Assembly: GCA_964291625.2 (NCBI GenBank)
Contig: OZ220089.1
Span: 832,001 to 896,000, forward strand
From: Candidatus Latescibacterota bacterium
Lineage (GTDB): Bacteria; Latescibacterota; UBA2968; UBA8231
Direction: 5' to 3'
Length of the DNA stretch: 64,000 bases
The notes below the pieces were generated by a model. The model saw nothing but the letters and a program-made list of their open reading frames with translations, did not search any database and was not told where the DNA came from. The translations under genes and the position numbers were made by a program. This document shows positions 28,631 to 32,079 of the stretch, piece after piece (the first letter of the stretch is position 1; every line of letters starts with the position of its first letter).

Positions 28631-29353
28631 CTATCTCCCTCCGCGGGCGGTGCTGTCCGCGGCGCCGGCGGTCGAGTCCGCCATGGCCCCGTACTGCTCC
28701 AGCAGCAGCAGTCTCTCCTGCTCCTGCCGGCGTTTCCACCTCGCCTGCTCCAGGCGCCCCAGCTCCAGCCGCTGGGAGGCGGTGAGCAGCTCCTCGAAGC
28801 CGGTCCGGTAGCGCTCCTGGAACACCTCGTAGTCGTCAAGGGACGGTGGGCGCCCTGCCTTCTTGAGGGCGGCCACCTCCTCGCGCAGCTCCGTCAGCAG
28901 CTGCAGCCACTGCCGCCGCTGCTCCGGCGACAGGTAGAGGACGTCCGCCAGCCCCATGGGCTCCACGTGCTGTCCGGGATCGAGCCGCCGCTCGCGCTGG
29001 TAGCGGCGGGCGCGGTCGATGAGGGCCAGCTGGTCCTTGGTGAGCACCCGGTCCCGCCCCGCCCGGTAGGCGTCGATGGCCTGGCGGTAGCGCACCCGCC
29101 CCCCCCGGGGCGAGATGCGGCCCTCCTCGATCTGGAGGCGCAGCAGGTCGAGCTCCTCCTGCAGGCGCCGTCTCGGATCCCTCAGAGCCTGCCGCTGGGC
29201 GTCGCCGAGGTCGAGGGCCAGCATCAGGCGGCGGTGGAAGTCCTCCCGGAGGCTGTCGCCGGGGGCCGGAGAGGGCGGCTGTCCCGAGGCGGGACCGGCG
29301 GCGAGGAGGGAGAGCATGAGCAGGCCGGCGAGGGGCCCCGTGGGTGAGCGCAT
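28631..29353 (-). CDS. secreted helical protein, Spy/CpxP-like repeats
   Basis: Signal peptide; repeated L.L...Q....VLT..Q pattern (LDLGDAQR, VLTKDQ, LSPEQR, LLTASQ). Confidence 0.6.
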   Translation of the reverse strand: MRSPTGPLAGLLMLSLLAAGPASGQPPSPAPGDSLREDFHRRLMLALDLGDAQRQALRDPRRRLQEELDLLRLQIEEGRISPRGGRVRYRQAIDAYRAGRDRVLTKDQLALIDRARRYQRERRLDPGQHVEPMGLADVLYLSPEQRRQWLQLLTELREEVAALKKAGRPPSLDDYEVFQERYRTGFEELLTASQRLELGRLEQARWKRRQEQERLLLLEQYGAMADSTAGAADSTARGGR

Positions 29354-30221
29354 CAAACCTCGATCGCCTGGTCCAGGGCCCGCATGTACCCGACGGTCCA
29401 CGCCAGCCCCGCCGCCGAGTCGCCGGCGATGGACGGGTAGTGCTCGGGGTAGACCTGGCCCTTGTAGCCGATCTGCTTGAGGGCCCGGAAGCAGCCCGCC
29501 ATGTCGACCTCGCCGGTGCCGAAGGCGACCTCCAGGTAGCCGAGCCGCTCGAAGCGCTCGCGCAGCTCCGCCGGCACCGGTCCGGCCGGGCGGGTCTCCA
29601 CGTCGCGGGCGTGGAACATGAAGATGCGGTCCCCGTAGTCGAGGATGTTGGCCACCAGGTCGTCGCCGGCCATCTGCGACTTGCCCTGGCAGAAGGTGAC
29701 GCCGCTGTTGGCGCTGGGGGCCTCGTCGAAAAGCCGTGTCATCGACTCGTAGTTCCACAACAGGCGGTCGGGAACGTGATAGTGATGGGTGGAGATCTTC
29801 ACTCCCGCGGCCTCGGCGCGCTCGGCCAGGCCGCGGTAGTACTCGACCAGCCCCTGCCACAGGGCGGCGCGCTCGCCATCGTCGGAGAGGGGGTCGACGT
29901 GAGGTAGAAGTGCACATAGGGCACGCCCGCGGTCCCCATCGACTCCAGCAGCCGGCCGATGGACTCCAGCTCGCGCCCGCGAGTCCCGGCGTCGGCGAAG
30001 GCCTGCTGGGGCACCCGGGGCGGCGTCAGGGCCGCCAGGGTCACGCCCTCCGCGGCGTACTCTCCGGCCAGGCGGGCCAGGTCTGCCGCGGCCGGCGAGC
30101 CCTCGCCGCCGCACGCGTCGGAGACTCTCAGCACGATGTGGCGCACCGCCGTGTCGCGGCAGAAGGCCCGGTTGCGCTCGTGGTCCCCTCCGAAGGGGGC
30201 GAAAACACCTATGTCCAGCAT
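29353..30221 (-). CDS. mannonate dehydratase-like / xylose isomerase TIM-barrel protein, frameshifted near 29895
   Basis: N-half MLDIGVFAP.. in ORF 29799..30293; C-half AEAAGVKISTH, NSGVTFCQG, FHARDV, GEVDM, PEH in ORF 29353..30378. Confidence 0.72.
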
Positions 30222-30291
30222 GTGGTCCCTCTCTCTCCCGGGGCGGCATCGAAGGATAGTCACGGCGGAGGGGCGCCGCTGAAGGCCGGCC

Positions 30292-30325
30292 AAAAAAAAA
30301 CCGGCGCGCCGCTGCGACGCGCCGG
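30292..30325 (-). terminator. Rho-independent terminator
   Basis: Minus strand CCGGCGCG-loop-CGCGCCGG followed by T9. Confidence 0.85.
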
Positions 30326-30640
30326 GATACCACTTGGGCGCCGGCGAACCGCCGGCGCCGCGCCAGGTGGGCGACCACCTGGACCTACAGAAACCGTCAG
30401 GTCAGGTGGTCGCACCTCCTGCGGGTATACAACTGCTCACGGACCACCTCCTTTCGTATCGGCTGCGAGAGCCCTGTACACCGGCACCGGATTTGCCGGG
30501 GTGCCGCCGCAAGAGTGGGCCCGCGCGCTCATCCCTGGCCCTGCAGCGTTCGCCCGAAGGGCGGGATCAGGGGCCAGTTGGCATTCTGCCCGGGGCCGGC
30601 GTCCTTCGCCGGCCCTGCGTGCGCGGTGTTTGTGGCCGCG
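30292..30640 (-). ncRNA. candidate structured RNA / leader with micro-ORF
   Basis: Bounded by a sigma70-like promoter and a terminator; at least 7 hairpins; AAAGGAGGT SD before 12-aa ORF 30402-30440; no family recognised. Confidence 0.5.
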
Positions 30641-30646
30641 CCTCGC

Positions 30647-30676
30647 TAATCTACCTCGCCGCCCGAAACGAAGTCA
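30647..30676 (-). promoter_or_regulatory. sigma70-like promoter
   Basis: Minus strand TTGACT-N18-TAGATT, divergent from hemG. Confidence 0.55.
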
Positions 30677-30696
30677 AGAAGTTGTACACTTGAATC

Positions 30697-32079
30697 ATGA
30701 ATCAGAGCGCCCACACCGAGGTCGCCATCGTCGGCGGCGGTCTCTGGGGCCTGGCGGCGGCCCACTTCCTGCGCCGGCTGGCTCCGGAGAGCGAGGTCTC
30801 GGTCTTCGAGGCGGCCCCGCGGCCGGGCGGCGCCGTGCGCACCCTTCGCCGCGACGGGTTCCTCTTCGACGCCGGCCCCTCCAGCCTCCTCGACAACTCC
30901 CCGGATCTGCGCCGGCTGCTGGCCGACAGCGGCCTGGCCGGACACGTGATCGAGGCGCGGGAGGCCGCCGCCCGGAACCGCTTCATCCTCCGCGCCGGCG
31001 GCCTGCGGCGGGTCCCGGCGAGCCCCCCGGCGCTGCTGCGGTCGGACCTGCTGTCGGCCGCGGCCAAGCTGCGCGTGGCCCGCGAGCCCCTGGTGCGGCG
31101 GGCACCGGCCGACGCCGAGGAGAGCCTGGAGGAGTTCGTCCGGCGCCGCCTCGGCCGGGAGTTCGTCGACTACGGCGCCGATCCCTTCGTGGCCGGCACC
31201 TTCGCGGGATCTCCCTCGGAGCTGTGCGTGCGCTCCGCCTTCCCGGGCCTGTGGCGTCTGGAGCAGGAGCACGGCAGCCTGATCCGCGGCGCCGCCGGCC
31301 GGTCCCGGAGGCGCGGAGAGCCCGCCGGCGCCGGACCCGGCGGCGGCATCGCCAGCTTCAGCGGCGGCATGCAGACCCTGGTGGAGGGGCTGGCCGCGCC
31401 CCTCGGAGAGCGGCTGCGCACCCGCGCCCGGCTGACCTCCGTGAGCCGCGGGCCCGGCGGCTTCCGCCTCGCCTTCGAGGGGCCCGGGGCCCCCGCCCGG
31501 GTCACCGCCCGCGCCGTCCTGCTGACCCTGCCGGCCCACGCCTACCGGGAGCTGCGCCTCGACACGGACGTGCCCGAGGGCCTGGCCGGGATCCCCTATC
31601 CCCCGGTGACGGCGGTGTTCTTCGGGTACACGCGGCATCCCCTGGACCCGCCGCCGGAGGGCCTCGGCTTCCTGGTGCCGCGCGTCGAGGGGCGCCGCAT
31701 CCTGGGCACGTTCTGGAACTCCTCGGCCTTCGTGGGACGGGCGCCGGAGGGCGGCGCCGCCTTCACCACCTTCGTCGGCGGCCGCCGCCAGCCGCAGATC
31801 GCCGCCTGGGACGACGGCCGCCTCGCCGAGACCGTCCGCGGCGAGCTGCGCGAGCTGATGGGGGTGGAGCCGGCGCCGGACGTGGTCCTCATCCACCGGT
31901 GGAAGCGGGCGATCCCCCAGTACGTCGTCGGCCACCGCGCCCTCATGGCCGGGATCGACCGCCTGGAGGCCGGCTGCCCGGGCCTGTTCGTGGGCGGCAA
32001 CTTCCGCGGCGGCATCTCCATCGGCGACTGCGTCACCGGCGCCGCGGAGGCGGCGCGGCGCATCGCCGCCCGCCTGTGA
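30697..32079 (+). CDS. hemG: protoporphyrinogen oxidase (HemY-type)
   Basis: FAD motif IVGGG..GL, RPGG, DAGP, GLGFLVP, AIPQY.VGH, GISIGDCV; next to hemA. Confidence 0.93.
   Translation: MNQSAHTEVAIVGGGLWGLAAAHFLRRLAPESEVSVFEAAPRPGGAVRTLRRDGFLFDAGPSSLLDNSPDLRRLLADSGLAGHVIEAREAAARNRFILRAGGLRRVPASPPALLRSDLLSAAAKLRVAREPLVRRAPADAEESLEEFVRRRLGREFVDYGADPFVAGTFAGSPSELCVRSAFPGLWRLEQEHGSLIRGAAGRSRRRGEPAGAGPGGGIASFSGGMQTLVEGLAAPLGERLRTRARLTSVSRGPGGFRLAFEGPGAPARVTARAVLLTLPAHAYRELRLDTDVPEGLAGIPYPPVTAVFFGYTRHPLDPPPEGLGFLVPRVEGRRILGTFWNSSAFVGRAPEGGAAFTTFVGGRRQPQIAAWDDGRLAETVRGELRELMGVEPAPDVVLIHRWKRAIPQYVVGHRALMAGIDRLEAGCPGLFVGGNFRGGISIGDCVTGAAEAARRIAARL

Follow-up and report, generated by a model that had tools for sequence, protein, structure and literature searches.

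A conserved small RNA of an uncultured Latescibacterota family combines an extended Shine-Dalgarno sequence with a very short reading frame: a candidate ribosome-docking mini-mRNA of the rre kind

The minus strand of a 64,000-nt stretch of Candidatus Latescibacterota bacterium contig OZ220089.1 carries a free-standing RNA of about 349 nt, which runs from position 30640 to position 30292. All coordinates are positions in this stretch, hereafter the window, and the genome to which it belongs is called G000. The RNA gene is real, expressed and conserved. By analogy with the rre small mRNAs of Alphaproteobacteria, we favour the view that it is a ribosome-docking mini-mRNA of the rre kind, which would act as a sensor or buffer of free initiating ribosomes; we put the probability of this reading at somewhat better than even (about 0.55). 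From its sequence features we read it as a new version of the rre/CC2171 kind that falls outside strict membership, its phylum and its architecture both being new. An earlier note on this DNA, made from the letters and their open reading frames (ORFs), had drawn attention to the region 30365-30456, which lies within the 3′ half of the RNA, for a strong Shine-Dalgarno sequence (SD), a micro-ORF and two competing pairings. The parts of the unit, in the order in which they would be transcribed, are the following.

30677-30648, minus strand: promoter, with TTGACT at 30677-30672, a spacer of 18 nt and TAGATT at 30653-30648.
30640-30456, minus strand: 5′ structured domain of about 185 nt, from the predicted RNA start to the SD.
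30455-30441, minus strand: extended SD GAAAGGAGGUGGUCC, 15 contiguous pairs with the 16S 3′ tail, one of them G.U.
30440-30402, minus strand: mini-ORF MSSCIPAGGATT, made of GUG (30440-30438), 11 more codons and UGA.
30428-30424, minus strand: 5′ strand of helix P1, AUACC, in codons 5-6, which pairs with GGUAU.
30421-30403, minus strand: 5′ strand of helix P2, CAGGAGGUGCGACCACCUG, which holds the inner GGAGG, GACCACCU and bases 1 and 2 of the stop codon.
30381-30363, minus strand: 3′ strand of helix P2, CAGGUGGUCGCCCACCUGG, with an alternative hairpin of its own, CCAGGUGG-UCGC-CCACCUGG.
30359-30337, minus strand: variable hairpin P3, in which 7 of 7 modelled pairs change on both sides.
30331-30327, minus strand: 3′ strand of P1, GGUAU, immediately before the terminator.
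30325-30292, minus strand: intrinsic terminator, an 11-pair stem at 30325-30301 followed by T9 at 30300-30292.

The extended SD is the most distinctive part of the RNA. The earlier note had described GAAAGGAGGTGGTCC, just ahead of the GTG, as a near-complement of the 16S 3′ end, and both the place and the pairing proved right. The segment was located at 30455-30441, and since the sole 16S 3′ end found in G000 (C1:2869280) reads GGATCACCTCCTTTCT, it forms 15 contiguous pairs with the tail of its own genome, in the order 11 Watson-Crick pairs, one G.U and three Watson-Crick pairs. The predicted duplex reaches -29.3 kcal/mol, compared to -9.2 kcal/mol for the AGGAGG core. Sites with at least 15 contiguous pairs number six in the genome, and the SD is the strongest of them save the antisense of the rRNA gene (-30.1 kcal/mol). 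The 11-mer GAAAGGAGGTG occurs six times in 5.9 Mb, this SD and the rRNA antisense included. In 24 aligned full-length homologs GAAAGGAGGUGGU and the UGAG that follows it are invariant, and homologs with CCA after the SD reach 16 pairs with the 16S tail, G.U included, as counted by eye. In the predicted folds of these 24 homologs the two ends of the SD differ: with a mean unpaired value of 0.59-0.85 the 5′ GAAA is largely free, and with one of 0.14-0.25 the 3′ UGGU is largely in pairs. The 16S 3′ end (G000:C1:2869280-2869295) is one of six matches to a 12-letter motif of the tail and the only one located at a 16S 3′ end, so the 5.9-Mb genome appears to have a single rRNA operon.

Related SD sequences occur elsewhere. 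Another GAAAGGAGGTG site, at G000:C1:3486252-3486352 (L090:1501-1601), is followed by short frames and a hairpin and scores 18.5 bits with the Rfam model RF01867 (CC2171). This site (C1:3486260) was considered as a paralog and rejected, as it matched in only one of 25 relatives and the SD was not covered by the match. Locus L125 (G103:C1:1447244-1447958, minus strand) is an ordinary-looking gene with an identical 15-letter SD and an ATG directly after it; judged by eye, its product resembles a Phd/YefM-type antitoxin.

The distribution of the RNA was determined with a covariance model built on the SD-to-P1 core. Among 151 genomes of the phylum, G000 included, the model gave exactly one match each in 58, and G000 holds a single copy of the RNA. 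In the family of G000 (f1) 57 of the 63 genomes besides G000 have a match, and the 87 genomes from 13 further families of the phylum gave none. Six f1 genomes are left without a covariance match; they are 75-94% complete, and one of them, G121, has the 15-letter SD pattern. A BLAST search recovered the region from 15 of 41 related genomes, G000 among them, every one in f1 (14 of 24 in that family), and from none of 16 genomes of three other families. An exact-pattern scan of public genomes returned 15 contigs, all from metagenome-assembled genomes (MAGs) titled Gemmatimonadetes, Gemmatimonadaceae or Ca. Latescibacterota.

Counts on the ORF refer to 45 homologs, which comprise 25 of 30 covariance-model loci and 20 additionally fetched regions. 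Loci L034 and L035 (near-identical to G000), L049 (which has an N in its sequence) and L059 and L061 (both the same as L058) were left out, and seven more matches from genus g14 also stand outside the count. Read by eye, the mini-ORF is carried by L049, L059 and L061, all three outside the 45, and by L004 and L003, which come from the same genomes (G006, G004) as the omitted L034 and L035.

Behind the SD, the earlier note had placed a 12-residue micro-ORF with an SD-like repeat inside it. Both were recovered, MSSCIPAGGATT followed by TGA at 30440-30402 and AGGAGGTG at 30420-30413. In all 45 homologs the first canonical start after GGAGG opens a frame that ends at the same place in P2. The start, located 6, 7 or 11 nt after GGAGG (11 in genus g13), is TTG in 31 homologs, GTG in 9 and ATG in 5, so that 40 of the 45 begin with UUG or GUG. 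The stop is TGA in 39, TAA in 4 and TAG in 2, and within g13 all three are used at one position. Most frames have 12 codons (32 homologs), the others 9 (5), 10 (3), 11 (2) or 13 (3). At least eight separate length changes can be distinguished by eye, and every one is a multiple of three: one codon fewer in G103 and in G136, one more in G146, G104 and G080, two fewer in g4/g11 and in g5, and three fewer in g13. The SD-to-start spacer and the P2 loop change by any number of nucleotides. On this comparison of homologs, the reading frame is under selection. The inner GGAGG is exact in 43 of the 45 homologs and stands 6 nt ahead of the last sense codon in 36 and 7 nt ahead of it in nine, the spacing in G000 being 7 nt.

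The mini-ORF is embedded in a three-way junction, with its stop inside a long helix. The structure given here is a consensus fold, and its pairs were counted on the 45 sequences in an alignment that had been fitted to the model and thus favours structure in these counts: 93.6% of cells are paired (79.2% in shuffled controls), the covariation score is 0.307 (0.133 shuffled, and at most 0.070 when partners are slid), and 16 of 29 pairs overall change on both sides. In P1, which starts 12 nt after the start codon, 4 of 5 pairs change on both sides. P2 has 17 pairs with 94.1% of cells paired, and 5 of its pairs have changes on both sides. P3 is missing from 4 of the 12 sequences of one alignment. 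Within this model, the frame from codon 5 onward is shown to be locked in the covariation-supported helices P1 and P2. The RNA as a whole folds with a z score of -4.05 relative to shuffles.

The two mutually exclusive pairings that the earlier note had assigned to GACCACCU did not fare alike. The pairing segments were found as described, GACCACCT at 30411-30404 and AGGTGGTC at 30449-30442, within the SD, and again at 30380-30373. The downstream pairing, with AGGUGGUC, is supported by a compensatory change in P2: in one clade GACCACC is replaced by GAUCACC and its partner GGUGGUC by GGUGAUC, the varying pair being C-G in 17 sequences and U-A in 18. The copy of GGUGGUC in the SD is constant throughout, and in the GAUCACC clade the SD pairing would include a G.U. 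Since the SD copy never varies, the pairing with the SD is possible and has no independent support. When it is forced in folding, the cost is 6.3 kcal/mol for the G000 3′ domain and 12.5 kcal/mol for the full RNA, and the P2 3′ strand turns into its own hairpin. Over 24 homologs the cost ranges from 0 to 14 kcal/mol with a median of 8.55; it is at most 3 kcal/mol in nine of them and nil in G014 and G151. In a single-clade alignment of 14 sequences, the predicted partner of the 3′ part of the SD is a CCGCC box of the 5′ domain. This box, about 120 nt 5′ of the SD, is present in genera g14, g16, g10 and g7, and its predicted pairing with GGUGG of the SD (A8 columns 35-42 with 156-161) would enclose most of the 5′ domain; the invariance of the SD side leaves it without compensatory support. 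A pairing of GGUGUAC in the 5′ domain with GUAUACC in the ORF, present in the minimum-energy fold of G000, was not found by eye in the other clade and was dropped.

What the frame encodes is kept far less strictly than the frame itself. The earlier note had proposed that conservation of SD, start and stop be compared with that of the peptide: the SD block is invariant in the 24 aligned homologs, start and stop are kept in 45 of 45, and the peptide is poorly kept. It is a polar, variable peptide of 9-13 residues in which Ser, Thr and Gly abound. Its C-terminal half is set by the P2 helix and its middle varies, codon 4 being N, T, K, P or S in the closely related genera g14 and g16. Only the peptide start M-[S/E]-S looks, from the alignments, to be selected as protein, and the peptide is most likely a by-product. 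The opposite view would be a micropeptide gene, in which the 9-13-residue product (M-S-S-...-T) matters, the strong SD serves output and the structure tunes output or stability. The start, frame and stop kept in every homolog and a codon-3 serine drawn from both serine codon families are what such a gene would have, and the RreB and RreR peptides are conserved within their own clades (PMC5711450). However, a length of 9-13 residues and variation at most positions, such as codon 4, speak against it; the C-terminal half is dictated by P2, and codons 4-6 covary with their P1 partner instead of keeping residues. Moreover, high output would hardly be expected of an ORF with a weak start codon (40 of the 45 homologs) and a helix that begins 12 nt further on, and the neighbouring genes include no conserved modifying enzyme or exporter. 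We consider a micropeptide gene unlikely.

The RNA is flanked by a promoter and a terminator of its own, which makes it a transcription unit of its own. One promoter site was found, compared to 0.0 expected from shuffles of the region, and 25 of 26 homolog loci have an equivalent TTGAC-N-TAnATT box 135-191 nt 5′ of the SD. Where the RNA begins is predicted from the position of the -10 box. Shuffles of the region lead one to expect 0.4 terminators; the stem and T run are present in 24 of the 26 homolog loci in which the 3′ flank was read, G016 and G106 being without a clean T run. Homolog RNAs are 285-351 nt long. The 5′ domain is kept within clades and diverges between them, and its hairpins show compensatory changes in the single-clade alignment of 14 sequences. 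In the window, the RNA sits in a 475-nt gap between two divergent genes.

30697-32079, plus strand: amine-oxidase/protoporphyrinogen-oxidase-like gene (PF01593).
3′ of the RNA, minus strand: TIM-barrel/UxuA-like gene.

The gene 3′ of the RNA (29353-30293, minus strand) is split over two frames. Its N-terminal 140 residues, from the ATG at 30221, are in one frame and have no Pfam match; its TIM-barrel/UxuA-like C-terminal part (29356-30000) is in the other. A frameshift, a pseudogene or an error of assembly could explain this. The genes that flank the RNA differ from genus to genus, and several of those on its 3′ side are convergent. Where G000 has the TIM-barrel/UxuA-like gene, G009 has an amidohydrolase, and the convergent genes are a response-regulator/cyclase (G008), glycosidase-like genes (G016, G010) and a response regulator (G020).

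This context bears on the first of three functions that the earlier note had offered, a leader peptide or attenuator. As a cis-acting leader, the element would be a leader-peptide attenuator or an SD-sequestering switch for a downstream gene. The two alternative pairings of GACCACCU are of the kind such a switch would use, and in a single genome, G023, a 525-codon ORF starts 37 nt behind the 5′ domain, SD and mini-ORF, without an intervening terminator. But a strong terminator closes the unit at 24 of the 26 loci, a pairing in competition with it was not observed, and the genes on the 3′ side are either unrelated or convergent. The alignments, in which no formal antiterminator search was made, showed no segment that could pair with the terminator stem. 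The leader-peptide attenuator was rejected on gene context and the constant terminator, and a cis-acting leader of either type is very unlikely. The G023 copy (L031:2490-4354, the same place as L014) keeps the promoter, 5′ domain, SD and mini-ORF MSSSIPLRGSAT and is without the P2 3′ strand, P3 and the terminator; it is the sole copy that could act as a leader. Pfam assigned no family to the 525-residue ORF behind it.

The third function on offer, a locus resembling a type I toxin-antitoxin system with a sequestered SD, finds even less in the data. It could draw on the presence of a small ORF and on the possible pairing of the SD with an inner segment. Its product would be 9-13 polar, variable residues without a hydrophobic stretch, and the RNA occurs as one copy per genome, conserved vertically across the family. 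A scan of both strands for promoters and terminators found no promoter-like or terminator-like site on the plus strand, and no antisense partner is evident. We regard the chance of such a locus as negligible. Identity with two other abundant RNAs of comparable length, each present as a single copy, was also considered, and in the Rfam searches of the window the element matched neither family. Transfer-messenger RNA (tmRNA) was ruled out, as ARAGORN puts the tmRNA of the genome at C1:991921-992287. The 6S RNA was rejected because RF00013 has no match in the genome, a weak absence given that the model responds in only 5 of 14 control genomes.

The second function, a ribosome-binding small RNA, comes closest of the three: the RNA is free-standing, its SD complements the full 16S tail, and the relatives rreB and rreR bind 30S subunits. 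Overall, the interpretation in the earlier note is supported in part. The rre small mRNAs comprise rreB of Bradyrhizobiaceae and rreR of Rhodobacterales (Hahn et al., RNA Biol 14:1353, PMC5711450). According to that report, the rreB mRNA measures 165 nt, carries a 17-nt stretch complementary to the 16S tail and has a small ORF (sORF) of 14 codons that opens with GTG; it co-sediments with 30S subunits, its translation is weak, being limited by the extended SD as well as by the GTG, and the RNA is stabilised once the start codon is swapped for a stop (PMC5711450). Analogs are reported there in four alpha-proteobacterial orders only (PMC5711450), and our literature search met no such RNA outside Alphaproteobacteria, although the supplementary figures of Hahn et al. 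may list further taxa.

The f1 RNA resembles these mRNAs in several respects. It is a small free-standing transcript with its own promoter and terminator. Its SD reaches beyond AGGAGG to either side, so as to match all of the free 16S tail, and continues up to the start codon, in the window into the GTG of a very short sORF that is conserved within the clade. The start codon is one other than AUG, the SD is predicted to be single-stranded at its 5′ end only, and genomic context is not kept across wider groups. The differences are as clear. The hosts are MAGs labelled Ca. Latescibacterota or Gemmatimonadetes and not Alphaproteobacteria. The rre mRNAs have 16-17 perfect pairs with the 16S tail, at least 16 nt of perfect complement being the rre criterion, whereas the f1 SD has 15-16 pairs with a fixed G.U; the window SD, with 15 pairs including the G.U, comes near to this length without reaching it. 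The sORF has 9-13 codons here, compared to 14 in rreB and 18 in rreR, and the peptides have no similarity. From the text descriptions of rreB, the three-way junction, the stop in a long helix and the inner GGAGG may also set the f1 RNA apart.

The Rfam family CC2171 (RF01867) offers a second comparison. CC2171 was confirmed by Northern blot in Methylorubrum (bioRxiv 10.1101/2022.01.24.477521); the Rfam 15 paper mentions only one added covarying pair. Its Rfam consensus opens with GAAAGGAGGUGAUCCAGUG and then has the 5′ strand of a helix just after the start, the 3′ strand just ahead of the terminator and inner hairpins between, as in the f1 RNA. Three of 12 homolog loci gave full-length matches to RF01867 below threshold (37.4, 31.2 and 29.1 bits; E from 8e-5 to 9e-3). 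The model also responds below threshold in five unrelated control genomes, so the match may reflect the SD and the terminator alone. At gathering thresholds, Rfam returned nothing across the whole window, and the other matches obtained in E-value mode (STnc390, V_AS7 and others) were weak and taken as chance.

Two older systems use similar parts in another arrangement. In the STAB-SD of Bacillus cryIIIA mRNA, a perfect SD of the GAAAGGAGG type in an untranslated region binds the 16S tail and protects the RNA. It is not known to have a start codon or ORF behind it, unlike the f1 RNA with its start, frame and stop in 45 of 45 homologs. In the inducible erm and cat leader peptides, a ribosome that translates or stalls on a short ORF opens a hairpin of SD-like and anti-SD-like segments. 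Those hairpins free the SD of a downstream gene, whereas here the terminator ends the unit and the neighbours are not conserved.

An RNA that binds the 16S tail need not be an mRNA. The element could be a non-coding RNA that acts as a sponge by way of SD-like and anti-SD-like segments, its target being the 16S tail, a GGA-binding protein or mRNAs; as ribosomes would start on it in any case, its in-frame stop would be kept only to avoid a run to the 3′ end and ribosome rescue. A 13-nt SD block that is invariant, far more than an ordinary ribosome-binding site requires, would be expected of it, as would three SD-like and two anti-SD-like segments with several possible pairing registers. The RNA-library contig is of high depth, and G000 has, by eye, no other in-frame stop before the 3′ end. 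However, unwanted initiation should have led to loss of the start, and all 45 homologs keep a canonical one, at a spacing of 6-7 nt or, in g13, 11 nt. A sponge is also hard to reconcile with rreB, whose overproduction had no growth effect (PMC5711450), and no target turned up, no target search having been made. A purely non-coding role thus appears improbable.

Expression was seen in RNA-library contigs. The runs in which the stretch occurs come for the most part from sponge and marine metagenomes. Two contigs of one study, X16 (depth 89.6) and X17 (depth 24.8), cover the RNA from 30416 or 30423 to 30629, and X17 enters adapter letters 5 nt past 30629, near the predicted RNA start. Contig X18, from a different study, covers 30302-30470 and ends within the terminator stem. 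No RNA-library contig lies over 30292-30301 or 30630-30640, and X16 and X17 are without 30292-30415.

If the RNA is a mini-mRNA of the rre kind, the following course of events can be proposed. A free 30S subunit would seed on the exposed 5′ GAAAGGA of the SD and zip up a duplex of about 15 bp. Initiation on the mini-ORF would then be slow, owing to the very strong duplex, the weak start codon and the presence of P1 12 nt after the start, inside the mRNA channel. The elongating ribosome would have to melt P1 and P2 to reach the stop in the P2 5′ strand. At the stop, the inner GGAGG would lie 6-7 nt ahead of the P-site codon, which is an initiation-like spacing, and the anti-SD may therefore re-pair and hold the terminating ribosome. 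The released P2 3′ strand would fold back on itself. Ribosome occupancy would in this way be coupled to the fold and lifetime of the RNA, after the rreB model.

A wider proposal can be made, speculative but with some chance of being right: RNAs with a mini-ORF behind a complement of the full 16S tail would form a widespread, as yet unrecognised class that interacts with ribosomes and extends beyond Alphaproteobacteria, and the one described here would be a two-stage ribosome trap that reports on or buffers idle ribosomes. A 30S subunit would first be captured through about 15 bp with the 16S tail, and the anti-SD of the same ribosome would be recaptured by the inner GGAGG at the stop, 9-13 codons later. 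The 5′ domain would provide a further input to this idle-ribosome reporter.

Three genomes of the sister family (f2), G144, G089 and G084, carry a second, differently built rre-like element, with the same GAAAGGAGGTGGTCC directly behind a promoter.

L121:1501-1760 (+), L122:301-560 (+) and L123, minus strand (SD at oriented position 301): f2 rre-like element.

In this element the SD is followed by ATG and an 11-codon frame, M[IT][ED][KM]TSGGGCS (MIEKTSGGGCS or MTDMTSGGGCS), with an inner GGAGG 7 nt ahead of the last codon; some 230 nt on there is a terminator-like hairpin. The element adjoins the end of an ABC-permease-like gene. Its layout is closer to rreB than that of the f1 RNA is. The recurrence of the inner GGAGG suggests that this motif is part of the design.

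Several points weigh against the ribosome-docking reading. Ribosome binding, translation and the effect on RNA lifetime are all carried over from rreB, an RNA of another phylum. The overproduction of rreB, which was harmless to growth (PMC5711450), argues against simple ribosome titration. The architecture departs from that of rreB: in the f1 RNA, of 285-351 nt, a structured domain keeps the SD 135-191 nt away from the 5′ end, whereas rreB measures 165 nt and has its SD near the 5′ end. Membership of RF01867 is rejected, as the window scores 15.5 bits (E = 0.57) against a gathering score of 75, and a whole-genome search with RF01867 at E <= 1 does not list the element. The codon-3 serine is written AGU, AGC, UCU, UCC or UCA across genera, which hints that the N-terminus of the peptide is selected as protein. 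The pair counts come from an alignment fitted to the model, as said above. As to expression, assembled contigs cannot reveal strand, true ends, level or absence. Contig X15 (30493-30884, depth 7.2) spans the predicted start and the promoter and extends into the amine-oxidase-like gene; it may represent carried-over DNA or another transcript, from the other strand.

Among described RNAs, only the rre small mRNAs have a ribosome-binding site that pairs with all of the free 16S tail. To this principle the f1 version would add a long 5′ domain, an ORF held in covarying helices, a stop inside a helix and an inner GGAGG at a fixed spacing from the last codon. Since the 16S tail is nearly universal, binding can be tested with the ribosomes of laboratory species. 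The same principle in an unrelated uncultured family would mean that it is ancient or has arisen repeatedly, and either origin argues for a real role at the ribosome.

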